Source of the DNA: Colwellia sp. 12G3
GTDB lineage: Bacteria > Pseudomonadota > Gammaproteobacteria > Enterobacterales > Alteromonadaceae
Direction of reading: 5' to 3'
Assembly (NCBI RefSeq): GCF_002836775.1
Contig: NZ_PJAQ01000043.1
Coordinates: 21,350 to 61,349 of the forward strand
Length of the DNA stretch: 40,000 nt
Shown here piece by piece: positions 12,470 to 37,657 of this stretch. Positions within the stretch are counted from its first letter, which is position 1. Every line of letters begins with the position of its first letter. Under the pieces are notes generated by a model, which was not told the DNA's origin, did not search any database, and worked only from the letters and a program-made list of their open reading frames with translations. A program made the translations under genes and the position numbers.

Positions 12470-13118
12470 TTGATGGCTCATAAGCATTGCCATACCTAGC
12501 CAAGAGAACCATAATATTTGGCCTAAGCCAAATATTTCTGTCAGTATTTCAGCAGGATAAATAGTGAGAATACCAACAGTACCAATAAATAGACCGAAAC
12601 AATTTAGCAATTTAGGTAATTCAATAATTTTTAAGCCTGCAACACTTAATAAAAGAACCCATAACCCTCCTACAACTTCGTTACCTCCCCCTAAACCTTC
12701 AACTATTGTATTAATAACGATCCAAAGAGTCATTGCTTGCTCTGCGTTTTTGGCAGACAAATCGATTACAGCAGCTAATCCTACATTTGCAATCATTCCA
12801 CTTGCTATGACAAGGCCAACCCAAATAATACCGAAGACCGAAGCAGTTTGTGATAAAACAGGGGCTTTGGTTTTCATTCGTTGATGGATCGCTAAAACTA
12901 ATACCGCCAAAAAAAGACCAAAGGCGACATACATAGTTAAGTTAACTATCGATAAAATCACTTGATTATTAGTTAGAAAAATAAATTTATGTGTATCATC
13001 CGCACTGACAGGGTAATCCCAAAACGCTCCAAAACGCTCCAAAAAAAACAAAAGCTGATATGTAAATAATGGCCTCAAAAAGTGCTGCAACGCCACCTAT
13101 TTTTTGTAATTTATTCAA
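12464..13118 (-). pseudogene. Cassette 8: multi-TM membrane protein (DUF4386-like) frameshifted by a 10-bp tandem duplication
   Basis: AAAACGCTCC occurs twice in tandem (13021-13040). The upstream frame TTG 13118..TGA 12996 encodes NKLQKIGGVAALFEAIIYISAFVFFGAFW. Deleting one repeat copy fuses it in frame to ..DYPVSADDTHKF.. of the 12464-13096 ORF. Confidence 0.65.
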
Positions 13119-13192
13119 GACTCTACCCTTGATTATAAAAATTTTAAGTTAACATAAAAGAATAGTTGTTAACGACTTCAATATGTAACAAA

Positions 13193-13290
13193 AGCTAACG
13201 CCCTAATAAGGGGCTTTTTTAGTTTGCTAAAATGTTGAACGAAGTGAAACCGAGCAAACTGTAAAAAGTCTCACTTGAGTAGCTTGTATG
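13193..13290 (-). repeat. attC-7
   Basis: agctaacgccctaataagggg..agtttgctaaaat..gaagtgaaaccgagcaaactgt..cttgtatg. Confidence 0.75.
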
Positions 13291-13311
13291 GATAAATTGC
13301 TGATATACCGA

Positions 13312-13557
13312 CTATAAAAAACTAAGAAGTAATAGTAAACCTATAATTCCCGAACCAAATAATAGGTATTTACCAAAGGTAGAATTATCTTCGAGAGTTT
13401 CTTGATGCTGCGCTTGTAATTGAGCCAACTGTGATTCATTTAAATCAGAGCAATGAATACATTTATCGCTTGCTTCCGGTGTATATAATTCACATCTATC
13501 ACAGCGTTTTTGTTTCGGCTGCTTAGCTTTCATTGCTAGACTCATTCCTACAGACAT
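13312..13557 (-). CDS. Cassette 7 ORF: small zinc-ribbon protein with a C-terminal TM helix
   Basis: CDRC...CIHC followed by a glutamine-rich linker and GIIGLLLLLSFL. Start moved to ATG 13557 (AAGGA upstream) because 13596 lies inside attC-6. Confidence 0.5.
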   Translation of the reverse strand: MSVGMSLAMKAKQPKQKRCDRCELYTPEASDKCIHCSDLNESQLAQLQAQHQETLEDNSTFGKYLLFGSGIIGLLLLLSFL

Positions 13558-13572
13558 TGTGAAATCCTTTAC

Positions 13573-13628
13573 ACATAACGCCTCGTTAAGAGGCAAATAA
13601 TTTGTCCTGCTTTAACGACTTGTTAGGT
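13573..13628 (-). repeat. attC-6 (short form, 56 bp)
   Basis: acataacgcctcgttaagaggcaaataatttgtcctgctttaacgacttgttaggt. CGTTAAGAGG pairs with CCTGCTTTAACG with bulged bases. Confidence 0.8.
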
Positions 13629-13645
13629 ATGCCGAATTCATATAC

Positions 13646-14089
13646 TTAACTCAATACTCTGATTTGGTTTATTGAATTTACTCTAATATGAGTTTGAAAA
13701 TAATATTTTTCAGTTCTCTTACCATTTGAAATAAACCAAATTTTCATTTGTTTGGCTTTACCAGTAACTTCGATATTTTTATTAATGAAATATGCTTCTG
13801 GCGAAGAGCCATATTTTTTTGTAAACGCTGCGATTGTTTTAGGGTGGAGTGCTACCGTAATACTTCTTCTATCTCTGTAATCTAATTCAGTGTTTAAATA
13901 GACAACTTTTCTCTCTACACCTGATGCTTTTATTGAAAATTGAAAAGTACCTCTTATACCATCTGGTGCATTTAGTTCTGTTTGTTCAATTAAACGCATC
14001 ACATCAGTTGAGGGTTGATTTGAAGTTACGTCAGACGTTGTTGTACATGCAGATAAAACTAAAATTGATAATAATATTAAATACTTCAT
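13646..14089 (-). CDS. Cassette 6 ORF: putative lipoprotein (147 aa)
   Basis: Lipobox LSAC|TT, with AAGGA upstream of the ATG. No family recognised. Confidence 0.6.
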   Translation of the reverse strand: MKYLILLSILVLSACTTTSDVTSNQPSTDVMRLIEQTELNAPDGIRGTFQFSIKASGVERKVVYLNTELDYRDRRSITVALHPKTIAAFTKKYGSSPEAYFINKNIEVTGKAKQMKIWFISNGKRTEKYYFQTHIRVNSINQIRVLS

Positions 14090-14112
14090 TGAGATGACAT
14101 CCTTGTTTGTAT

Positions 14113-14213
14113 ACCTAACGCCGCAATAAGCGGAAAATTATAGTTGGCTAAAATGTTTGAGGAACGAAAAACAGCCAACTGTAAATTTTGTCCTTTTAAA
14201 CTACTTGTTATAT
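14113..14213 (-). repeat. attC-5
   Basis: acctaacgccgcaataagcgg..agttggctaaaat..acagccaactgtaaattttgtccttttaaactacttgttatat. This is a near-consensus member. Confidence 0.85.
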
Positions 14214-14221
14214 GCACAACA

Positions 14222-14422
14222 CTAAGATTTAGCAGGTTTTATTTTTACACGTTTGAATGCAATAAATAAAACATCTACTACTGTGATCAGTATGATAATC
14301 GAACAAATAAAGTTTATTGAATCTAAATTAACGCTAGATAGATTAGGTTCAAATAAATTTGTAAATGCTAAAACAAGCATTGGAATGATAAACGATATTC
14401 CAATTATATATTTCATTTTCAT
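14222..14422 (-). CDS. Cassette 5 ORF: small two-TM membrane protein (66 aa)
   Basis: Hydrophobic ORF with GGAG upstream of the ATG. Confidence 0.45.
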   Translation of the reverse strand: MKMKYIIGISFIIPMLVLAFTNLFEPNLSSVNLDSINFICSIIILITVVDVLFIAFKRVKIKPAKS

Positions 14423-14432
14423 ATACGACTCC

Positions 14433-14500
14433 TATTACTCTCAAGTTAGAATTAGTCACCAAATCAGAGGTGCATTTTTCCGCTTGAAGAGCTTGTTATA
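14433..14500 (-). repeat. attC-4 (short, degenerate R')
   Basis: On the minus strand R'' is ATATAAC. L'' CTCT(T)CAAG pairs with L' CTTGAGAG, leaving one bulged T. R' reads GTAATAG instead of GTTATAT. Confidence 0.5.
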
Positions 14501-14503
14501 TTA

Positions 14504-14728
14504 CTATTGATACCAAACACTTACGACGACTGTTGCAGGCATCCATGAACCACCACTTTGTGATTGAGTGATATTTTTAATTTCCACATCTGGCTTTGAA
14601 GCGAGCCAAAGATTGATTTCAGCTTCTAAACCACAATCAGATGATGATGTTGAACTAGGCCAAAAACCTTGCTTAGGCTTAATGATTTTTGTGAATATTT
14701 TAACTTCCATTTTAGAAATATACTCCAT
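14504..14728 (-). CDS. Cassette 4 ORF: hypothetical 74-aa soluble protein
   Basis: ORF placed between attC-3 and attC-4. No family recognised. Confidence 0.45.
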   Translation of the reverse strand: MEYISKMEVKIFTKIIKPKQGFWPSSTSSSDCGLEAEINLWLASKPDVEIKNITQSQSGGSWMPATVVVSVWYQ

Positions 14729-14740
14729 GTTGATTTAGTA

Positions 14741-14843
14741 ATATAACGCCCAAATAATGGGCTAAGCAATGGTTGGCTAAAATTGTGTAGCGAAGCGAAA
14801 CGTAGCCAACTGTTACGTTTCCTTGTTGATTTTCTTGTTAAAT
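14741..14843 (-). repeat. attC-3
   Basis: atataacgcccaaataatgggc..ggttggctaaaat..gaagcgaaacgtagccaactgt..tttcttgttaaat. Confidence 0.85.
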
Positions 14844-14849
14844 CTCGTT

Positions 14850-15356
14850 TTATAAAGCCACTTGATATATATCTATTTCGAACCCACGAAATACAGAAGA
14901 TTTAATAAATTGAAAGCCTGTTCTGTTTACGACTTTAACAGAGCTAACATTATCCGATTCTATTAGTGCGTGTACCGCGTTAAGATTTAAGGATTTTTTA
15001 GCAAAGTCTAAAATCCCATTTGTTGATTCAACAGCATAACCTTTACCTTGTTGGTCAGTGGTAAGGCGATAGTTAATATGTATAACATCTTCAGAGTTCA
15101 AGTTGTGTTTATTAAGACCGCACACCCCAACAAACTCATCAGTAACAGAGTTAAAAATTGCCCAATGCCCATAGCCATTTAAGTCATACTGTTTTTTGCA
15201 GTTAGCTATATAATCATGGATTTGTTCTTCTGTGTGAACACCTACAGTTGAGTATTGCATTACTACAGGATCAGCTAACACTTTTGATAGGTTTTTAGCA
15301 TCCTCATTCGTAATTTGACGAATACATAACCTTTCAGTTTCAACAATAATCAACAC
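14850..15356 (-). CDS. Cassette 3 ORF: GNAT (RimJ/RimL-like) N-acetyltransferase
   Basis: Has ETERLCIRQ.T.ED (a typical RimL-type N-terminus), QGKGYA and N..S..V..R.GF blocks. Confidence 0.8.
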   Translation of the reverse strand: MLIIVETERLCIRQITNEDAKNLSKVLADPVVMQYSTVGVHTEEQIHDYIANCKKQYDLNGYGHWAIFNSVTDEFVGVCGLNKHNLNSEDVIHINYRLTTDQQGKGYAVESTNGILDFAKKSLNLNAVHALIESDNVSSVKVVNRTGFQFIKSSVFRGFEIDIYQVAL

Positions 15357-15368
15357 AAACTCCTAGAG

Positions 15369-15466
15369 ATATAACGCCCTCGTTAATGGGCAAAATATTG
15401 TTGGCTAAAATAGTTGAGGAACGAAACACAGCCAACAATATTTTGTCCTGATTTAACAGCTTATTA
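15369..15466 (-). repeat. attC-2
   Basis: atataacgccctcgttaatgggc..gttggctaaaat..acagccaacaatattttgtcctgatttaacagcttatta. Confidence 0.85.
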
Positions 15467-15471
15467 TAAGT

Positions 15472-15726
15472 TTAATTAACTACACAAGAACAAGCTATTT
15501 CGCCGTCTTGAACCCACTCTCTGTAGCCTGAACCACATTTCATTTTATAATGATTACAAGTTGCCTCGTTACCATAAGCAGTACTATTTCCAGTAACCGT
15601 TGTAGTTATAACGCCATCAATAATTTCGCCCGCAGACCAAGGTTTAATATCTAAAGCAGTACAACCAGAGAGAAAGGTAATAGAAAATACGAGTAGAATG
15701 AAATATGTTTTATTCCCAGCAACCAT
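15472..15726 (-). CDS. Cassette 2 ORF: small Cys-rich lipoprotein (84 aa)
   Basis: Lipobox LSGC|TA, with four further Cys in the C-terminal third. Confidence 0.55.
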   Translation of the reverse strand: MVAGNKTYFILLVFSITFLSGCTALDIKPWSAGEIIDGVITTTVTGNSTAYGNEATCNHYKMKCGSGYREWVQDGEIACSCVVN

Positions 15727-15750
15727 TTTAATACTCCAATACTTAGAAAC

Positions 15751-15835
15751 TTATAACGCTTTGATAAGCGGGAAAAACTTGTTGGCTAAAATTGTGAACG
15801 GAGTGAAAAAGCCAACTGTTTTTTTTCTTGTTATG
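15751..15835 (-). repeat. attC-1
   Basis: ttataacgctttgataagcggg..gttggctaaaat..aaagccaactgtttttttttcttgttatgt. Confidence 0.85.
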
Positions 15836-15839
15836 TAAT

Positions 15840-16043
15840 TTACTGCTGCGGTGTTTCTTTATTTTTGAGAGGAGCTAAAAGCATATAGAATATCCAAGCA
15901 AACCAAGACACAAAGACTACTAATAACAACCAAGCCAATTTTTCACCACCACGAGTTTTTGATGAACTTAAAATTAAAACTACGGGTAAAACCCAAACTA
16001 AGAAAAATATTATCAAGATTGAAAAAATCCCTATACCACCCAT
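15840..16043 (-). CDS. Cassette 1 ORF: small PLDc_N-type two-TM membrane protein (67 aa)
   Basis: The pattern KLAWLLLVVFVSWFAWIFYMLLAP is typical of the PLD-nuclease N-terminal (PF13396-like) small membrane proteins. GGAG lies upstream of the ATG. It is the first cassette after attI. Confidence 0.6.
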   Translation of the reverse strand: MGGIGIFSILIIFFLVWVLPVVLILSSSKTRGGEKLAWLLLVVFVSWFAWIFYMLLAPLKNKETPQQ

Positions 16044-16066
16044 ATTGCTACTCCATTTATTTAATT

Positions 16067-16090
16067 ACATAACAATTTATTATGAGGAAA
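16067..16090 (-). other. attI core (simple site) with the attI x attC junction
   Basis: + strand ACATAAC (16067-16073) has the same R-box sequence as attC-6, attC-9 and attC-11. AATTT and an imperfect inverted copy ATTATGA follow. The site lies between cassette 1 and intI. Confidence 0.55.
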
Positions 16091-16093
16091 GCC

Positions 16094-16246
16094 CCTTGTT
16101 TCTACAAGATGGGATTAATCGTCCATAATTTTATAATGTTAGGAGGTTACTCGATTGTTACTGATAGATCAATCAGTTAAAAACATTGCTCAAACTGGTA
16201 GATGTGTGAAAGGAGGGGATTTGCGCGCTTTCTTGTAGAAAGAAGG
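16094..16246. repeat. 15-bp inverted repeat pair in the attI / intI-promoter region
   Basis: CCTTGTTTCTACAAG (16094-16108) versus CTTGTAGAAAGAAGG (16232-16246) gives 14/15 complementary positions. The right copy overlaps the putative PintI -35. Confidence 0.6.
16144..16172 (-). promoter_or_regulatory. Candidate cassette promoter (Pc)
   Basis: The minus strand reads TTGATC-17 nt-TAACCT, pointing into attI and the array. This rests on the sequence pattern only. Confidence 0.25.
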
Positions 16247-16260
16247 ATTTATGTTAAGCT
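16233..16260 (+). promoter_or_regulatory. Candidate intI promoter (PintI)
   Basis: TTGTAG-16 nt-TAAGCT with an extended -10 TGn. The LexA box overlaps the -10 and start region. Confidence 0.4.
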
Positions 16261-16274
16261 GTATGTATATACAG
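16259..16274 (+). promoter_or_regulatory. LexA (SOS) box
   Basis: CTGTATGTATATACAG is a perfect CTGT-N8-ACAG match with an AT-rich core. It lies 17 nt upstream of the intI ATG. Confidence 0.8.
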
Positions 16275-16290
16275 TTGGCAAGAGGTTTTT

Positions 16291-17256
16291 ATGTCTTCGC
16301 CATTTTTACAGTCTATTGCAGAACAAATGCGTTTAAAGCGTTATGCCAAAAGAACGATAGAAAGCTATGTTTATTGGATAAAGGCGTTTATAAATTTTAA
16401 TGGTCAGCGTCACCCAATAAAGTGTCATGATGCTGAAGTAGAAAATTTTTTGTCTCATTTAACTAACAAACTCAATGTTGCACCTAGAACCCAAGGTGTG
16501 GCATTAAATGCTTTAGTATTTTTGTATCGGGGGATCTTATTAAAACCTTTAACTCTCGAACTTAATTTTAATAAATCTAAACAACAAACTAAGTTACCTG
16601 TCGTGTTAACTCAAGCAGAGATCATCGCGTTATTAGCCAAAATATCAAATAACTATAGTTTGCCTTGTAAATTAATGTACGGAAGTGGGTTGCGTTTAAT
16701 GGAGGTTGTTCGCTTAAGGGTACAAGACATTGATTTTGACTTTCATGCTATTCAGGTATGGCAAGGTAAGGGTGGTAAAAACCGGCGTGTTACGTTAGCA
16801 AAAGAGTTATGTAATTCGTTAAAATCTCAAATAGCGTTAGCGCAGTATTATTATCAACAAGACCAATACAATCCAAACTATAAAGGCGTATGGCTACCTT
16901 ATGCTTTAGCGAGAAAGCATCCTAATGCGAGCAAAGATATGCTGTGGCATTATCTTTTCCCTTCGAGTCGGTTAAGTAGAGATCCTGAAACAGGTTTTGT
17001 TCGTCGACATCATATTGATGAAACAACATTAAGAAAATCAGTGAAAATGGCTGCACTGAATGCGGACATAGCAAAAAATGTGACTTGTCATACGTTACGA
17101 CATTCATTTGCCACACATTTATTACAACGAGGTGCCGATATTAGAACCGTGCAGGAGCAGTTGGGACATACTGATATTCGTACAACGCAAATATACACTC
17201 ATGTAATTGAACATGGCGCAAACGGTGTGCGAAGTCCTTTATCTGACTTACTTTAA
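16291..17256 (+). CDS. intI: Integron integrase IntI (tyrosine recombinase), apparently intact
   Basis: 321 aa. Motifs present: YAKRTIESY, LPVVLT, GSGLRLME, RLRVQDIDF, WQGKGGKNRRVTLAKEL, CHTLRHSFATHLL, GADIRTVQEQLGHTD and TTQIYTHV (catalytic Tyr). The IntI-specific extra domain is also present (WLPYALARKHPNA...WHYLFPS...RRHH; compare IntI1 LPDALERKYPRA, recalled). Confidence 0.95.
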   Translation: MSSPFLQSIAEQMRLKRYAKRTIESYVYWIKAFINFNGQRHPIKCHDAEVENFLSHLTNKLNVAPRTQGVALNALVFLYRGILLKPLTLELNFNKSKQQTKLPVVLTQAEIIALLAKISNNYSLPCKLMYGSGLRLMEVVRLRVQDIDFDFHAIQVWQGKGGKNRRVTLAKELCNSLKSQIALAQYYYQQDQYNPNYKGVWLPYALARKHPNASKDMLWHYLFPSSRLSRDPETGFVRRHHIDETTLRKSVKMAALNADIAKNVTCHTLRHSFATHLLQRGADIRTVQEQLGHTDIRTTQIYTHVIEHGANGVRSPLSDLL

Positions 17257-17272
17257 ATACCGTTATGTAGAA

Positions 17273-17313
17273 TAAAAAAATCCGCTCAGTCTATACTCAA
17301 GAAAGTGCGGATT
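17273..17313 (-). terminator. Terminator-like hairpin downstream of the DUF885 gene (convergent with intI)
   Basis: The minus strand reads ATCCGC-21 nt loop-GCGGAT followed by TTTTTTT. The long loop lowers confidence. Confidence 0.45.
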
Positions 17314-17372
17314 ATTATGCTATGAAAACATTTAATATAAAGTGCTTAACGCTTTTATTACTTAAGTATTAA

Positions 17373-17801
17373 CTAGGCTTTCTTAGTTGTTATGTAGTCA
17401 TTAACTAAATCGGCTAAAACGTTAAGTGGTACTGGACCATTTTTTAATACTACGTCATGAAACTCACGAATATCAAACTTATCGCCTAACTGAACTTTGG
17501 CATGTTCACGTAATTCAATGATTTTGTTCATACCAATTTTGTAAGCTGTCGCTTGTGACGGCATTACCACGTGACGCTCTACCATTTTTACTGCATCAGA
17601 CATGGCATTAGGCGTATTTGTAGCGTAGTACTCTATACCTTGCTTACTAGTCCATTGTTTAGAGTGAATACCTGTATCAACCACTAAACGACATGCACGC
17701 CATAATTCCATTGCTAAGCGACCAAAGTCAGAATAGGGGTCTTGGTATAAGCCAATCTCTTTAGGGATCATCTCTGAATAGAGTCCCCAACCCTCAGTCT
17801 G
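17373..17801 (-). pseudogene. DUF885-family protein, C-terminal fragment (gene split by an insertion)
   Basis: ..TEGWGLYSEMIPKEIGLYQDPYSDFGRLAMELWRACRLVVDTGIHSKQWT.. continues the sequence that ends at ..FGGYTAHTE in the 19316-20755 fragment. The first 19 codons of the 161-aa track ORF come from the inserted DNA. Confidence 0.8.
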
Positions 17802-17970
17802 GGTCTGTATATACATACGCATAATTGATGAGGTTTTTGTAAGTGGTTCTAAGATCACTTTGTGCGCTTAGCGGAAGTTAACCATGACATTCACATTACT
17901 TCCGCTTCTTTAGCTATGAGTTGACCTTAATGGCGTCGTTGAAAAGTCTAGGTAATACTACACTGCGGAC

Positions 17971-18720
17971 TTAGAATCTTAGCCAAAAAGAAGAGATAGC
18001 TAATATAGCGAACATATATGGAACTCTGAATTCAATAAAATTTTTAAAATGGAGTACCTTGAGGTTCTTAAAATGTCTTAAAAAGTATTTCATATCAGCG
18101 CTCGTAAGTTCGTATGGAACTGTATAAAATAATGCTGACTCAGTAGCTTCATCATCCTTAAACTCTAGACCGTCCTGTCCGTTCAGTAGATTAAATATCA
18201 ATTCATTTTGATAACTTTTAGCCCCAAAAATTCTAAACTTGTGAGCAATTTTATCGCCGTCATATTCTTGAAATTGGATTCGATTAATATCAATATGATT
18301 GTTTCTTAGATATAACTTAACCTTCTCTTCAGTCCAGTAACGAATTAGTGATTCTTCATATTTTTTTTGGTTTCCTATATCAGTCATACGTAAATAATAG
18401 TCTCCATGATTTGACCAGAACAATATTAAATAAACTACTAGGCTATAAACCAGTGCAATAAATAGCGCATAACCTATAATAGCAGGATTTGATATTGTCC
18501 CACTAACAATGCCTATCCCGGAACCTGTAATTTTTATTCCCGCTAGATTATAAATAAGTGAAAATATGGATAACATAATTAAGGGCTTGCGACGCCTTTC
18601 ACCTTCTGTGTCTCCAAATTGACTAGGATTTTTAAAAAAACTACAAGCGGCTCGCTCATTATCACTAATATCTAGCAACTCCGGATTTATAATTCCTAAC
18701 ACTTCCTGACCGATACTCAT
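17971..18720 (-). CDS. Hypothetical membrane protein (249 aa) carried by the insertion
   Basis: Long ORF in AT-rich DNA. Two central-N-terminal TM helices (LIMLSIFSLIYNLAGIKI; AIIGYALFIALVYSLVVYLILFW), a soluble region of about 130 aa, and a C-terminal hydrophobic helix. No clear SD and no family recognised. Confidence 0.5.
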   Translation of the reverse strand: MSIGQEVLGIINPELLDISDNERAACSFFKNPSQFGDTEGERRRKPLIMLSIFSLIYNLAGIKITGSGIGIVSGTISNPAIIGYALFIALVYSLVVYLILFWSNHGDYYLRMTDIGNQKKYEESLIRYWTEEKVKLYLRNNHIDINRIQFQEYDGDKIAHKFRIFGAKSYQNELIFNLLNGQDGLEFKDDEATESALFYTVPYELTSADMKYFLRHFKNLKVLHFKNFIEFRVPYMFAILAISSFWLRF

Positions 18721-18960
18721 ACTATTTACTATGCCTATTACAAACTTATTGTATTGATTATAATACGTTATCTATTTTCGATTAAACATCTGAATTTTAA
18801 TCTTTCAAATACAGATAAAGAGGTAATAATTTGAATTCAATGTCTAATTTTCGCACTGGCAAGACATAAGGACTAATTATCAAAATGACTATATTCGTAT
18901 CAAAGTGATCGTTAGATGGGATGAATTTCACTCGTAAATTTAGACCGCTTTGTGGCCAGC

Positions 18961-19110
18961 CTGTGTGAAAACTATTTTTAACTTTCGTAATAGAATAATA
19001 TCAACGAAAAAAGGCGCTGTAGATTAAATTCTGTAGTACGTTTGATAACAAACCACCTGTTAATTTACGTAGCGTCGCATAAAAAAATTACGCAGGGAGT
19101 TTTCACACAT
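18961..19110. repeat. 13-bp inverted repeats bounding a 124-bp hairpin-rich AT-rich segment
   Basis: CTGTGTGAAAACT (18961-18973) versus AGTTTTCACACAT (19098-19110) gives 12/13 complementary positions. Internal stems include CCTGCGTAATTT/AAATTAACAGG, GTTTG/CAAAC and TTTCGT/ACGAAA. Confidence 0.6.
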
Positions 19111-19315
19111 AGATGGCATGAGTGATCTAATTTTCTGATCGTTATTCTCGAGCATTATGTGTAGTCAAAAGTATGTAAATTAATGTTCAGCCTTTTACGT
19201 GTACGACAAAGACAAAAACTGGGTAACGGTTTAATTGGTTGTTGGAGAGGGGGATCTTTAGTGACCTACGCGTAAGGCGAAGTCTCTGGTAAGTATTGTG
19301 TATATATTTCGAGGC

Positions 19316-20755
19316 TTAGACTTCAGTATGAGCGGTATATCCACCAAATTTACGGAACTTTGGGATGCCCGTTAATTCTTGTTGGATTGCCAATTGCATG
19401 TGATGACCAGGAATACCTTCATGGTAGGCTAATGCTGCCATTTGATAAGAAGGCATAGCTGCCATGTCATAGAGGTTGGCGTAGTAAATTCCCGGACGAG
19501 AGCCATCTGGAGCCGGGCTTTCATAAAACGCTTTTCCGGCTGATTTTTCTCTGAAACCTTCAACAGCTTTAACTTTTAATGTCGCTTTTGGCTTGGTTAA
19601 AAATAAGCTGTCTAAGCGGCCTTCCATATCATCGATAAGTGCTACGGCTTCATCTAAATAACGCTGTTTCCCTTCATCGCTAGCTGGGTAATAAAACTGT
19701 TTGTCGTTACGCATAAAATCAAAAAAGTCATTAAGATTTCCTTCAAAACCAACGGCTTTCTGGATGACAAGCATTTCATTATGGATACGTGACACTTCAC
19801 TTAAGCCAAGAGTATGAATTTGATCTGCGGTTAAATTAGTTGTGGTGGTGCGTTTTAAAGCATTATTGTAAAAGGCTTCACCGTCAGGAAACTTCCATGC
19901 ACCATCGCGGGTGTCTGCTTTTGTCTCAAGTGTTGTTAAATAAGTAATTAATTGTTCGTAACCTGGTTTCAAACTGTCGATTAGTGCTGTTTTTATATCA
20001 ATAATTAAGACCGATTTTTCTTCATCGGTAATGTTAAGTTTATCAACCTTGTGGGTGAAATCGCCAAAAATAGTACTGTTAGATGAATTATCAAAGGGGG
20101 CGCCGACCAGAATGTTTTTTGAGTCTCTAATAACGTGAGGAAAGACAAACTTAGGTGCAATAATACCTTTCATTTCACGCAGTTTAAGTTGCTCAACAAG
20201 CTGCTCTAGTAATTTTTTAGCACCGTGAACACGGGCAATATAATCTTGTGCTTCTTTTATATCACTAATAGAGTGCTGATTAATCAAAAAGGCGGGTATT
20301 TGTGAATGTGTACCAAACATTTGATTAACAGGGTAATTATGAAAACGCCATTTATAATCTTCGATACGGTTTTCGAATGTTTGCATGTATAAACTGTGGC
20401 TAATTTGAGTTTGTTCATCAAGCGTATTAACATCAATAGCTTGTATTAAAGCTAAATTATTTTTAGCGAAAGCGAGTTCTTTTTCTTCATTTTCTTGTGA
20501 AAGATCATTCCACTTGTCGTAATCTTTTTTTATGCCTAAATAGGTTTGCCATGAAGGGTCACGATCAACTTCTTGGTTAAAAATGTTATCAAACAACGCA
20601 TTGGCTTGCTCTGAAGCTGTCTTTACGCTAACCGCTGTTTCATCAGCTGTGGCTGCTATGTGTTGGTTATTTTGTGGTGCTGCTTTATCTTCTGAACAAG
20701 CGCTTAGTAAAGCCGCGGCAACAGCAACGACTAATAGGGACTTTTTAAATGACAT
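19316..20755 (-). pseudogene. DUF885-family lipoprotein, N-terminal fragment (truncated by the insertion)
   Basis: Lipobox LSAC|SE. The DUF885 signature HEGIPGHHMQ is present. It ends ..KFGGYTAHTEV* with the last codon and the stop supplied by the insertion. Confidence 0.8.
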
Positions 20756-20925
20756 ATATTTCTCATCTGATTCACATTATCCCTAGTTTGCCTTAATGTA
20801 TGTAGCTAATTCAATGAATGCTCGACAGATTGTTCTAAAATTACGACCAACAGGTTTTGTGAATCGGTAAAAAGAAGTAAACTGAGTTATATCATTAGAT
20901 CCAAGCGACCATGGAAACCCAGTAA

Positions 20926-21393
20926 ATGAAATTTACCGTTGGCTTTCGAAAAGTTAAGAATGAAGACATCGATTTTTTGTTAGAGTTGCGGAGAAAAACC
21001 ATGACTCAGCATTTGCTCGCGGCAGGTATTCGTATGACCGATGAGCAGCACTTAGTTCGAATTAAAGAACATTTTTATGAGAGCCATATAATTTTAGCGG
21101 ACCGTAAACCTATCGGCTTAGTGAAAATGGGGGTTGTTGCGCTTAATAATACGCATAAAAGCTTACATATTCGGCAGATACAAATTATGCCAAAATATCA
21201 AGGAAAAGGTATCGGTAGTAAGGTTATTAAGGTAGTAAAAAAGCGTGCTTTACAGTTATGCTTACCGATCACCCTAAATGTTTTATTGAAAAACCCCGCT
21301 AGAGGATTGTATTTGCGTCACGGATTTCAAGTGGAGAAGAAAAATCGTTTGGAATATCAATTACGTTGTCCATTAGAGGTGATTGCCGCTTAG
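20926..21393 (+). CDS. GNAT family N-acetyltransferase
   Basis: Has Q.QIMPKYQGKGIGSKVI and NPARGLYLRHGF blocks. Confidence 0.8.
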   Translation: MKFTVGFRKVKNEDIDFLLELRRKTMTQHLLAAGIRMTDEQHLVRIKEHFYESHIILADRKPIGLVKMGVVALNNTHKSLHIRQIQIMPKYQGKGIGSKVIKVVKKRALQLCLPITLNVLLKNPARGLYLRHGFQVEKKNRLEYQLRCPLEVIAA

Positions 21394-21485
21394 CTGATTA
21401 ATTTTAGCTTGTCAGCGACAATCATTATTTTCGTATTTAGTCATGCTTAACTAAATGAACTGAGTAACATCTCTAATAAATAAGC

Positions 21486-22955
21486 CTAGTAGATAAGGCC
21501 GTTACGTTTTACTTTGTTCGGGTCAATACGTGATGGCGTAATAGAACCATCAACCAATGGTGTGGTTGCTATTGCTAGCATTTTTATCACTTGTAACATT
21601 GAAGGTAAGTTCAAGCTATTAATGTCATCGGTCACTTGATGGTAATGTTGGTCTTTATCGAGTTGCGTACTACTAAAGCTATGAGCCGGTACACCTAATC
21701 TTGCTAACGTTGCATTATCTGAACGATAGAATAAGTTTTGTTTAGGGTAGGGGTCAGCATAAACTTTTAGGTTCTGTGGTGCTAATGCTTGGTTTAGTTG
21801 CTCACCTAGATTTGAACGATCCATACCCGTCATCCAAACAGTACCATCACCAAACATGGCGGGTTTACCGATCATCTCAATGTTAATCATGGCTGTTATG
21901 CTTGTTGGCTCTACATGAGTAGAAAAATGACGAGAGCCAAAACCACCAATCTCTTCGGCACTAAAAGCGGCAAACATTAATGTTCTTTCATTATTGCCCA
22001 TTTGAGCAAAGTGATTGGCTAAATTGATAATGGCTGAAACACCAGAAGCATCATCATCAGCACCATTATAAATTTCAGTTGGTGTTTGTGATTGACTATT
22101 AGACGTATCATCAATACTCGGTTTAATGCCTAAATGATCATAATGAGCTGAGTAAAGTACAACCTCGTTAGCTCTGCTTTTACCAGGTAAAATACCCACT
22201 ACATTACTTAAGGTTGTGTCTGTAACCGTGGCGTTGCCTTTGACGCTAAATGTTTTTGCTTTGCTAATGTCAGTTAACGCCATAACAATAACGCCACCTT
22301 GCTCTGTAGCATTTTTGGTAACGAGTTTAGTTAAGCCTTGAGCAAAGTAACTTTGATAGCGCTTAAAGCTTTCTTCATGTTTTGGGTGAAGTAATACTAA
22401 ATGTTGACCACCTTGGTTATTTAACTCACGCAGCGATTTACGCATGTTGTCGTCTTCACCAATCATAACCATATTTACAGGCTGATTATTTTCCTGAGCA
22501 TTACTATGCCATGAAAACTCAGTTTTTGTTGTTGCCATGGATAACAATTCACTTGAAATTGCTTGGCCATTTATTTCAACAGTAAGGGTATTAGGGGTAA
22601 TTCGTTGTACTGAATATTGCTGTTTAAAGTTGGGGGCACTCTTTGCTGTCGTAAGACCTACTTCATTAAAACGCTTAGCGATAAAGTCAGCAGCATGGCG
22701 GATATCAAGGGTAAAGTTATCACGGCCTTTAAGTTCATCACTGGCTAAGTAGCTAACATCTTCAGTAATTTGCTCTAAAGTAATGGTGTTATCAATAGTA
22801 GTAGCGGTACTTTTTTTATCATCTACAGTAGCGTTAGACGTTTCACTGTCGAGGCCTAAGTCAATATTGCTACAACTTGATAAAGATAAGCAGGCTAGCG
22901 CTAGTAGCGTAAGTGAAGTTGCCAACGCTACTGATTTTAATCGTTTTTTAGTCAT
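21486..22955 (-). CDS. M28 family peptidase lipoprotein
   Basis: Lipobox LSSC|SN. M28 blocks are present: SAHYDHLG, GADDDASGVSAIINLA, FSAEEIGGFGS. Confidence 0.85.
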   Translation of the reverse strand: MTKKRLKSVALATSLTLLALACLSLSSCSNIDLGLDSETSNATVDDKKSTATTIDNTITLEQITEDVSYLASDELKGRDNFTLDIRHAADFIAKRFNEVGLTTAKSAPNFKQQYSVQRITPNTLTVEINGQAISSELLSMATTKTEFSWHSNAQENNQPVNMVMIGEDDNMRKSLRELNNQGGQHLVLLHPKHEESFKRYQSYFAQGLTKLVTKNATEQGGVIVMALTDISKAKTFSVKGNATVTDTTLSNVVGILPGKSRANEVVLYSAHYDHLGIKPSIDDTSNSQSQTPTEIYNGADDDASGVSAIINLANHFAQMGNNERTLMFAAFSAEEIGGFGSRHFSTHVEPTSITAMINIEMIGKPAMFGDGTVWMTGMDRSNLGEQLNQALAPQNLKVYADPYPKQNLFYRSDNATLARLGVPAHSFSSTQLDKDQHYHQVTDDINSLNLPSMLQVIKMLAIATTPLVDGSITPSRIDPNKVKRNGLIY

Positions 22956-37067: not shown

Positions 37068-37201
37068 AAGCGTAGAAATCACGTGATTTAAGACGAATAC
37101 AGCAACATTTCGCTGGGCTATATGCCCTTTTTTTATATCTAAAATTTATATTGTACTGCCTTATGTATTTATCATAAGGGTAGAATAACAGGAGAACAAG
37201 A

Positions 37202-37657
37202 TTGGCTAAATTTGAGCAAAAACTAACTGATTTATTAAGACCTGCAGTTGAAGAAACTGGCAAAACTTTGCGTGGCATTGAATATCTCAGTGCGGGCAAT
37301 AACTCAGTTTTACGTTTGTTTATTGACCATGAAAATGGCATCAATGTTGACGACTGTGCAGAAGTGAGTCGTCAAGTCGGTGCACTATTAGATGTAGAAG
37401 ATCCAATTAGTAGTGAATACAGTCTAGAAGTTTCATCTCCAGGTGTTGATTGTCCATTATTTGAATTAGCACATTTTCAAGAAGTTATTGGTGAAACGGT
37501 TAATCTAAGATTATCAATGCCTTTAAATGGTCGTCGAAAGTTCAAAGGGCCATTAGTTGCCATAGAAAACGATACATTAATAGTACAAGTCGACAGCATC
37601 GATTATGAAATTGCTTACAGCAACGTAGATAAAGCGAACCTTGTCGCAAAATTTTAA
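37202..37657 (+). CDS. rimP: Ribosome maturation factor RimP
   Basis: TTG start with AGGAG upstream. EQKLT.., RL.ID.E.GINVDDCAEVS.QV.A.LDVEDPI and LEVSSPG are colinear with E. coli RimP (recalled). Confidence 0.9.
   Translation: MAKFEQKLTDLLRPAVEETGKTLRGIEYLSAGNNSVLRLFIDHENGINVDDCAEVSRQVGALLDVEDPISSEYSLEVSSPGVDCPLFELAHFQEVIGETVNLRLSMPLNGRRKFKGPLVAIENDTLIVQVDSIDYEIAYSNVDKANLVAKF

Follow-up and report, generated by a model that had tools for sequence, protein, structure and literature searches.

Recombinase-less islands with imperfect direct repeats can recombine at short segments of identity without RecA or a known site-specific recombinase (PMC3191183, PMC5426353). The microcin H47 island of E. 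coli, described in the same reports, contains neither integrase nor excisionase, is flanked by imperfect direct repeats and recombines within short identity segments to give hybrid sites, with an enzyme that is host-supplied or unknown; the island is 13 kb long, its repeats are extensive, and both excision and integration have been shown experimentally. Transposase-less units whose terminal inverted repeats are unique (Furuta et al. 2010, PMC2853133) and the mobile insertion cassettes (MICs; MIC231; qnrD, qnrS2; PMC3913671, PMC2600179) carry a single passenger gene or a few of them, lack a transposase, end in inverted repeats that are absent elsewhere in the genome, and are defined by comparison with an empty site. 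Their inverted repeats are clear (26/26, 60/65, or IS-derived) and their 8-bp target duplications are perfect. Insertions with long target duplication (Nobusato 2000; Furuta 2010, PMC2853133) also lack mobility genes and have direct repeats that align with the empty site, the duplication being longer than 30 bp and a true copy of the target. Integron cassettes at secondary or attG sites (10.1101/2022.09.11.507474) are single-gene units that disrupt a chromosomal gene near an active-looking integron, with GTT at the target.

The insert described here lies in a window of 40,000 nucleotides from Colwellia sp. 12G3, to which all coordinates refer. It shares with the H47 island the missing integrase and excisionase, the imperfect flanking repeats and the hybrid sites, but it is 1.5 kb long, has a repeat of ~10–30 nt with 5 perfect bases, interrupts a coding sequence and is known from sequence alone. 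It resembles the transposase-less units and MICs in its passenger gene, its lack of a transposase, the absence of its ends elsewhere in the genome and its definition by an empty site, whereas its inverted repeat is marginal (p ~0.03) and its 10-bp repeat is imperfect and hybrid. Insertions with long target duplication have the same lack of mobility genes and the same alignment of direct repeats with the empty site, but here one of the two copies is a foreign look-alike. Like cassettes at attG sites, the insert is a single-gene unit that disrupts a chromosomal gene close to an active-looking integron, with GTT at the target, but it has no attC, its junction is not at G|TT, and its leader is long with nested repeats. 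The earlier note on this DNA had called the insert a cassette of an undescribed type, a label that is unwarranted given that transposase-less cargo units (PMC2853133) and recombinase-less islets (PMC3191183) have already been described.

The interrupted DUF885 gene and its junctions

The DUF885 lipoprotein gene lies on the minus strand and is interrupted after ..GGYTAHTE, and before GWGLYSE.., by 1529 bp (17792–19320). Its native 5' part (19321–20755, minus strand) comprises 478 codons with the lipobox LLSAC and the HEGIPGHH motif, and its native 3' part (17373–17791, minus strand) runs from GWGLYSE to the stop codon. The N-terminal ORF as called (19316–20755, minus strand) takes its stop codon (..TE-V*) from the insert and matches positions 1–401 of Pfam DUF885 (PF05960, E 1.3e-111), and the called C-terminal ORF (17373–17858, minus strand), whose start falls within the insert, matches positions 384–532 (PF05960, E 1.5e-61). 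It had been proposed earlier that the insert supplies both a stop codon upstream and a new start downstream, and this agrees with what is seen: possible GTG and ATG starts for the 3' fragment are supplied by the insert, with no Shine-Dalgarno sequence evident before them on direct reading. A relative of the DUF885 protein is found in the PDB as entry 3o0y, 'lipoprotein'.

In 11 congeneric genomes the gene is uninterrupted, reading ..FRKFGGYTAHTEGWGLYSEMIPKE.., and stands in the same neighbourhood, M28 peptidase-GNAT-DUF885-intI. All 11 orthologous sites are empty at exactly the interrupted codon, both flanks map onto the same 19–22 bp of the empty site, and the gene of this strain, freed of the insert, would read ..CATACTGAAGGTTGGGG.. 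there. DNA identity to the intact orthologues is 76–83% for the 5' part and 82–90% for the 3' part. The view of the earlier note that a DUF885 gene has been split by an insertion of ~1.5 kb is borne out, coordinates included: the orthologues are single ORFs rather than naturally two, and the two fragments abut perfectly. Because the HEGIPGHH motif and the C-terminal quarter of the protein now lie on different sides of the insertion, DUF885 is inactivated. Unique changes at otherwise invariant sites number 3/263 and 0/100 in the two fragments, within the range of the intact orthologues. Since the fragments show no decay or relaxed evolution the insertion is recent, and, there being no excess of substitutions in them, the two mismatches of the junction repeat predate the insertion rather than reflect decay.

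The 10-mers at the two junctions, CATACTGAAG (19330–19321) and CAGACTGAGG (17801–17792), are identical at 8/10 positions, a match seen at a frequency of 7e-4 among random pairs of 10-mers drawn from the window. In a gapped alignment the similarity reaches ~33 nt, more weakly there, with a score met by 23/5000 shuffles (p 0.005); perfect identity between the copies is limited to the 5 nt ACTGA. The left copy (19321–19330, minus strand) is native and consists of the codons H-T-E plus the G of Gly, the same codons being present in 11/11 orthologues as part of the common TAHTE. The right copy (..YIQTQTE) is foreign; it merely resembles the target and arrived with the insert, whose right end ..AATTATGCGTATGTATATACAGACCCAGACTGAGG (17792–17830, minus strand) includes it. 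The repeat is thus non-random and hybrid, the left copy being native and the right one foreign but target-like. Of the imperfect 10-bp target duplication described previously, the repeat itself is real, but the reading as a target duplication is not supported, and the repeat is not a decayed one. One of the 11 orthologues has the native codon GAG instead of GAA, and a perfect target duplication of 2–5 bp is possible only if the native allele had GAG.

The insert and its ends

The foreign DNA (17792–19320, minus strand) is present in a single copy, contains no recombinase gene and is absent from the 11 orthologous sites. As reported earlier, 1519 bp lie between the repeats, or 1529 bp counting the insert-borne copy. 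The GC content of the insert is 34.1%, compared with 37.9% for the genome, 38–40% for the flanking gene parts and 34.6% for the cassette array; the insert is therefore AT-richer than its flanks, though modestly rather than markedly so. Its content is likewise as first described, namely one 249-aa ORF and a 600-bp leader. A Pfam search of the ORFs and all leader frames revealed neither a recombinase nor a remnant of one, and no leader frame has a match. Positions 13000–22000 gave no match to a structured RNA family (group I/II intron, retron etc.) in Rfam at E up to 1, and therefore no group II intron or similar element is present. The left end TCTAAGCCTCGAAATATATACACAAT (19285–19320, minus strand) and the right end are weakly and imperfectly inverted copies of each other (GTCTrrGyCT..TATATACA); this inverted repeat requires a 4-nt indel and is marginal, its local alignment score of 22 being met by 170/5000 shuffles (p ~0.03). 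This confirms the weak terminal similarity noticed before, with TATATACA shared by both ends at 19306–19299 and 17813–17806. The integron integrase gene intI (16291–17256, plus strand; TIGR02249, 464 bits against a cut-off of 265) is convergent with DUF885, lies outside the insert and occupies the same position in the congeners; 536 bp separate its stop codon from the insert, in line with the 0.5 kb given previously.

Neither the ends nor the body of the insert has a second copy in its own genome. No copy of the insert or its ends was found in 400 genomes of the family, in 54 congeners at the protein level, in plasmids or in phages, and no exact 20-mers in metagenome and viral contigs. These searches revealed no partner element either. 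The insertion is real and a one-off event; the mobility and the autonomous partner in relatives that the earlier note had envisaged for a non-autonomous cassette have no support in these searches. On present evidence, this is an ordinary one-off insertion and nothing shows a new kind of mobile element.

Several other resemblances were considered and set aside. Where the ends are joined, AGAC(T)-GA/TGAG-(A)GTCT is palindromic, but comparable palindromes arise in 5% of joints made at random. The right end also resembles the LexA-box/RBS region of intI, a likeness attributed to chance, the 14-nt identity between 17806–19 and 16261–74 having a score met by 98/3000 shuffles and 62/675 other windows. 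The 10-mer GATCACTTTG, found inverted within the insert on either side of the ORF, and an inverted match of 16 nt between the insert and the DUF885 3' part both occur at the expected chance frequency, and comparison by eye with dif/Xer-like, Tn5/IS4-like and IS200/IS605-like ends gave no convincing match. As regards IS200/IS605-type PATE features, only AT palindromes (TGTATATACA) and no G+C-rich subterminal hairpins are found near the insert ends. The genome's only Y1 gene is a RAYT flanked by its own GTAG-REPs, and the REP core GACTGAAGTC next to it resembles the left junction at chance level; REP copies number only ~4 in the genome, and the REP-core 10-mer occurs 7 times against 9.6 expected.

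Origin of the insertion

The best reading, to which we assign a probability of about 45%, is that a circular DNA acquired horizontally entered the chromosome by one Campbell-type crossover where a short stretch of the two is similar, helped by an enzyme in trans or by none. We infer a circular intermediate and one crossover from the structure of the junctions alone; the foreign origin is likewise inferred. Circular or circularised DNA of ~1.53 kb from a relative of the same family would have recombined once inside DUF885, bringing an orphan membrane-protein gene together with its own upstream region full of family-typical small repeats. The crossover would have fallen in a short patch where the incoming ..TATATACAGACCCAGACTGAGG resembles ..ATATACCGCTCATACTGAAG of the gene, ACTGA alone being identical, and a single reciprocal exchange there would set the whole circle between two hybrid copies of the patch, native on the left and foreign on the right, which is the structure observed. 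The joined ends of the proposed circle would read ..CAGACTGA[A/G]GTCTAAGCC... As the insert encodes no enzyme for it, the recombination may have been RecA-independent and short-homology (illegitimate), or may have been carried out by a host or helper recombinase or transposase in trans. A foreign, family-related origin is favoured by the MITE nested in the leader, which is 91–93% identical to copies in other species and genera compared with 80% to the host's single other copy, and by Thalassotalea as the source of the only close homologue of the cargo. Against the crossover reading, no circular form, donor locus or second event was found among the data searched, and five perfect bases make for scant homology. 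That the ends form a weak inverted repeat is unexpected for random foreign DNA and points to an IS-derived element, and the proximity of an integron that produces cassette circles, 0.5 kb away, is left without explanation.

The main rival, which we consider unlikely, is a mobile insertion cassette, that is, a transposase-less IS-derived element with imperfect terminal inverted repeats that was moved by a transposase in trans into a target resembling its right end, with a duplication of 2–5 bp (GA to ACTGA). IS30 and IS911 insert beside sequences resembling their own ends, which counts in favour of such an element. The inverted repeat of the ends, the perfect repetition of ACTGA and the passenger gene unrelated to transposition, with no transposase and no other coding frame, are all in keeping with it, but the inverted repeat needs its indel and is marginally above chance, and the 10-bp repeat is imperfect despite the recent date of the event. 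A perfect 5-bp duplication would moreover require the native GAG. Units that are unique, lack a transposase and have inverted repeats and short duplications are known (PMC2853133), as are MICs (PMC3913671), but there is no second copy of this one, no IS with matching ends occurs in the genome or in the 400 relatives, and the few transposase genes of the genome show no link to the insert ends.

It is improbable that the insert is an integron cassette placed by the neighbouring IntI at a genomic GWT site (attG) outside the array, its attC having since been lost or being too atypical. The intact IntI 0.5 kb away, the GTT in the target exactly at the junction (GAAG|GTTGGGG) and the size, single orphan membrane-protein gene and 34% GC of the insert, all like those of the resident cassettes, would fit such an origin, and IntI-driven attG insertion followed by attC loss has been proposed (10.1101/2022.09.11.507474). 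Loss of attC, however, conflicts with the recency of the event. A model (R1) built from the 12 resident attC sites, which is sequence-only and represents the local attC type rather than a generic structural model, gives 43–83 bits for the array sites, but the best hit in the insert scores 7.4 bits (E 0.17) and lies within the MITE. The left junction reads GAAG|TCTAAGCC (GAAG|TCTAAG) and not GAAGG|TTRRRY; the native GAAGG is one G shorter there and is followed by TC rather than TT, so that the cut is not at G|TT. A 600-bp leader with the MITE and another repeat module, together with a 179-bp tail, is also unlike a compact cassette.

The hybrid, imperfect attL/attR-like repeats are typical of integrase-mediated integration, and the insert could be what is left of a larger integrase-bearing island that entered at an attB in DUF885 and then lost the integrase and most of its length by internal deletion. 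This has a low probability, as both ends would have to survive the deletion of all else within a short time, the insert holds no integrase fragment, and the DUF885 site is not a recurrent attB because 0/11 orthologous sites are occupied. There is a slim chance that single-gene cassettes without an enzyme form a family of which this insert is the first example to be seen. The abutted ends of such cassettes would form a short imperfect palindrome, and their insertion into targets mimicking the right end would fall to an enzyme of the host, perhaps connected with the neighbouring integron or with a recombinase that has escaped recognition; if true, this would be a cassette system parallel to integrons, without attC. 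An assembly artefact, or an old tolerated split with the two halves still working together, is very improbable: the assembly is a draft of 68 contigs and neither fragment shows further damage, but the insert sits well within a 340-kb contig and is bordered by unique sequence on either side, the HEGIPGHH motif is parted from the conserved C-terminal domain, and the possible starts of the 3' fragment lack a ribosome-binding site.

The locus is a clean, datable case in which a small recombinase-less islet disabled a conserved gene located directly beside a chromosomal integron, and it is through cases of this kind that the entry of orphan genes into genomes in the absence of dedicated mobility genes can be studied. 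It also carries the warning that imperfect junction repeats are not always footprints of transposition, the 'target duplication' here being foreign sequence that looks like the target. Should further copies bounded by these ends come to light, they would offer a tractable model for trans-mobilised single-gene cassettes.

Cargo gene and small repeats

The cargo gene (17971–18720, minus strand) encodes a predicted membrane protein of 249 aa without a match in Pfam, NCBIfam, PADLOC or the PDB. Two hydrophobic helices of the protein, around FSLIYNxAGIKITGSGIGIVSGTIS, are conserved, and its C-terminal helix is hydrophobic as well; the AF2 model, made from a 2-sequence alignment, is poor (pLDDT 50.6). 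A single homologue with 56% identity was found among 5.8e9 proteins, in Thalassotalea, where it lies in an unrelated context, and the family is tiny, with 13 clusters among 1.84e9 representatives. A search for the donor locus in plasmids, phages, 400 family genomes, and genome and metagenome contigs, by protein profile and end 20-mers, returned only the Thalassotalea ORF.

The 600-bp leader is pieced together from small repeats that are widespread in the bacterial family, whereas the leftmost 195 nt of the insert (19125–19320) are unique. A promoter-like site TTGATA-16-GATAAT (18876–18903, minus strand) upstream of the cargo ORF is a 10/12 consensus match only, and the promoter scan overall gave no more sites than in its shuffles. 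A conserved non-coding module of 62 nt, CCACAAAGCGGTCTAAATTTACGA..CTAACGATCACTTTGATACGAA (18894–18956, minus strand), has copies of 77–94% identity in many genera and also stands alone in other genomes. On the other side of the cargo gene, a hairpin GAAGCGGAAGT..ACTTCCGCT followed by a conserved 27-nt motif AACTTCCGCTAAGCGCACAAAGTGATC (17853–17908, minus strand) is a further small repeat common across the family; the motif recurs in the genome as two 27/27–28 copies, both accompanied by a hairpin of their own, and has copies of 91–100% in other genera. The nested MITE-like repeat (18951–19121, minus strand) has the inverted ends TGTGTGAAAAC / GTTTTCACACA, which in other copies reach TGCCACAGGCTGTGTGAAAAC / ..GGCTGGCCACA in an alignment of 13 copies. 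MITE copies with 80–93% identity are found in 25 of the 59 family genera sampled, with no Rfam match. This family-wide MITE and the rare 249-aa membrane-protein family are minor by-products of the analysis.

The interrupted DUF885 gene and its junctions

In a DNA search of 40 relatives, an uninterrupted DUF885 gene was found in at least 11 congeners, and in each of these both halves of the Colwellia sp. 12G3 gene map to one ORF with a 19–22 bp overlap at the empty site, so that the split is specific to the Colwellia sp. 12G3 genome and the fragments abut exactly. This bears out the earlier note, which had described a lipoprotein gene split by an insertion; the orthologues are not naturally two ORFs. 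All intact orthologues read ..FRKFGGYTAHTEGWGLYSEMIPKE.. across the site, and the gene order M28 peptidase, GNAT, DUF885, intI is kept among congeners. The 5' ORF (19316–20755, minus strand) covers Pfam DUF885 positions 1–401 and the 3' ORF (17373–17858, minus strand) positions 384–532, with the HEGIPGHH motif parted from the conserved C-terminal quarter. The stop codon directly after codon 478 is supplied by the insert, and on direct reading no ribosome-binding site is visible before the possible starts of the 3' fragment. As judged from the sequence, DUF885 has most likely been inactivated.

Along the minus strand, the left junction passes from ..GGATATACCGCTCATACTGAAG into TCTAAGCCTCG.. and the right junction from ..TGTATATACAGACCCAGACTGAGG into GTTGGGGACTC.. 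The left 10-mer of the junction repeat (19330–19321, minus strand) corresponds to H-T-E codons that are native to the gene and shared by all orthologues; that on the right (17801–17792, minus strand) encodes ..QTE and is non-native, which places the foreign DNA at 17792–19320 (1529 bp). The two are identical at 8 of 10 positions, as are random pairs of 10-mers from the window at a frequency of 7e-4, and by gapped alignment the resemblance extends over about 33 nt with a score matched in 23 of 5000 shuffles, perfect identity being confined to ACTGA.

The earlier note had taken this repeat for an imperfect target duplication. Decay of a perfect duplication is excluded, as two changes in 10 bp contrast with undamaged gene parts: at DUF885 sites invariant in all other orthologues, unique changes in Colwellia sp. 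12G3 number 3 of 263 in the 5' part and 0 of 100 in the 3' part. Intact genes counted in the same way range over 0–9 and 0–4, respectively, and since both counts fall within these ranges, either the insertion is recent or the halves are still under selection. The right 10-mer is a trait of the incoming DNA, target-like already before insertion.

Content of the insert

At 34.1% GC, the insert resembles the cassette array (34.6%), the genome being at 37.9% and the flanking gene parts at 38–40%. As first described, it holds one 249-aa ORF and a 600-bp leader, in which neither a coding remnant nor an Rfam match was found. The product of this cargo gene (17971–18720, minus strand) has conserved hydrophobic helices, no match in Pfam, NCBIfam, PADLOC or PDB, and an unreliable AlphaFold model (pLDDT 50.6). 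It is missing from all 54 congeners searched, and among 5.8 billion proteins it has one homologue (56% identity), in Thalassotalea sp. G2M2-11, where the context is unrelated and the ORF alone is shared with the insert. HMMER, run over all 1.84 billion representatives, gave a family of 13 clusters, defined at 50% identity and alignable over the whole length. In this tiny family a membrane segment, FSLIYNxAGIxITGSxIGIISGTISxP, is nearly invariant, and the motif FIEYRLP is found at the C-terminal end; just downstream of the Thalassotalea gene (locus L018, 8001–8729) lies a dus gene.

The non-coding leader and tail are a patchwork of three small repeats. The first, a MITE-like element in the leader (18951–19121, minus strand), is about 170–185 bp long; its inverted ends, in the extended form seen in other copies, measure about 21 nt and read TGCCACAGGCTGTGTGAAAAC / GTTTTCACACAGGCTGGCCACA. 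Sampling of 59 genera of the family detected it in 25, with identities of up to 93% and 1–5 copies per genome (for example at comparison loci L019–L029 and L002). Its interior is unusually conserved (85–93% between genera) and, given this conservation, the element is possibly a structured RNA; it has no Rfam match. The insert's element is 91–93% identical to copies in other species versus 80% to the host's single other copy, which fits import from a related organism. The second is a 62-nt conserved module (18894–18956, minus strand; CCACAAAGCGGTCTAAATTTACGA..CTAACGATCACTTTGATACGAA; loci L031–L036 and L041) found alone or beside the MITE in many genera; because conservation runs on downstream of it in several genomes, it may belong, as the 5' part, to a longer element or RNA. 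The third, downstream of the cargo ORF (17853–17908, minus strand), comprises a variable hairpin and an invariant 27-nt motif, AACTTCCGCT(T/A)AGCGCACAAAGTGATC, with three copies in Colwellia sp. 12G3 (the others at G000:C11:182700–182727 and G000:C68:166639–166666, contigs of its own genome) and copies 91–100% identical in other genera. Conservation stops exactly at GATC, resembling an element terminus.

Route of insertion

The insertion is real, recombinase-less and recent; it is a singular event, of a kind already known in general terms. Because one copy of the junction repeat is native and the other foreign, and the two share a short perfect core, we favor Campbell-type integration, in which a single reciprocal crossover would have joined a circular molecule to the chromosome. 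The exchange could have been catalyzed by a trans-acting enzyme or have proceeded by RecA-independent short-homology recombination, and the data fit either. A precedent for the latter is the microcin H47 island of E. coli, whose excision and integration take place inside imperfect repeats, at short stretches of identity, and involve no known recombinase (PMC3191183, PMC5426353).

The chief competing reading is a cassette that lacks a transposase but has inverted repeats, as in mobile insertion cassettes (PMC3913671) and units seen around restriction-modification genes (PMC2853133). The ends of the insert do form a weak inverted repeat (GTCTAAGCCT-CGAAA-TATATACA versus GTCTGGGTCT-G-TATATACA), marginal in that its score is equalled by 170 of 5000 shuffles; however, the junction repeat is imperfect and the insert is single-copy. 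Searches of its own genome, of 400 family genomes, and of plasmids and phages gave no further copy of the insert or its ends, nor were exact 20-mers of the ends found in metagenome or viral contigs. No partner was found either, and none of the few transposase-type genes of the genome (one Y1, four DDE_Tnp_1, one rve and three resolvase-type) is linked to the ends. Of the mobile cassette of an undescribed type proposed in the earlier note, the recombinase-less insertion into a conserved gene stands, whereas its mobility is unsupported and a new class undemonstrated. Joining the ends would create a small palindrome, but palindromes of this sort arise at 5% of random joints and this one is non-significant. 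Outside the window, a 161-aa REP-associated Y1 transposase (G000:C52:86600–87900) is flanked by two GTAG-type REP hairpins, GTAGAGGCGACTTCAGTCGCC and GTAGGGGC(T/G)AATTTATTCGCC, of about four copies each, a population that looks very small.

Joining of a linear fragment at two independent breakpoints would give no reason for a repeat that is native at one junction and foreign at the other. That the insert is an integron cassette is quite improbable: intI (16291–17256, plus strand; TIGR02249 match, 464 bits) is convergent and 536 bp past the insert, in line with the 0.5 kb first estimated, GTT is present at the target and genomic GWT sites can receive cassettes via IntI (10.1101/2022.09.11.507474), but the left junction reads GAAG/TCT.. 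instead of GAAGG/TT.., a leader this long and rich in repeats is atypical of cassettes, and a sequence model from 12 resident attC sites scores the array of intI (leftwards from about 16290) at 43–83 bits and the insert at 7.4 bits (E 0.17), inside the MITE. The same model gives a weak lone match at 37169–37245 (minus strand; 12.1 bits, E 0.006), 20 kb from the array, which may represent a stray site of attC type or have arisen by chance.
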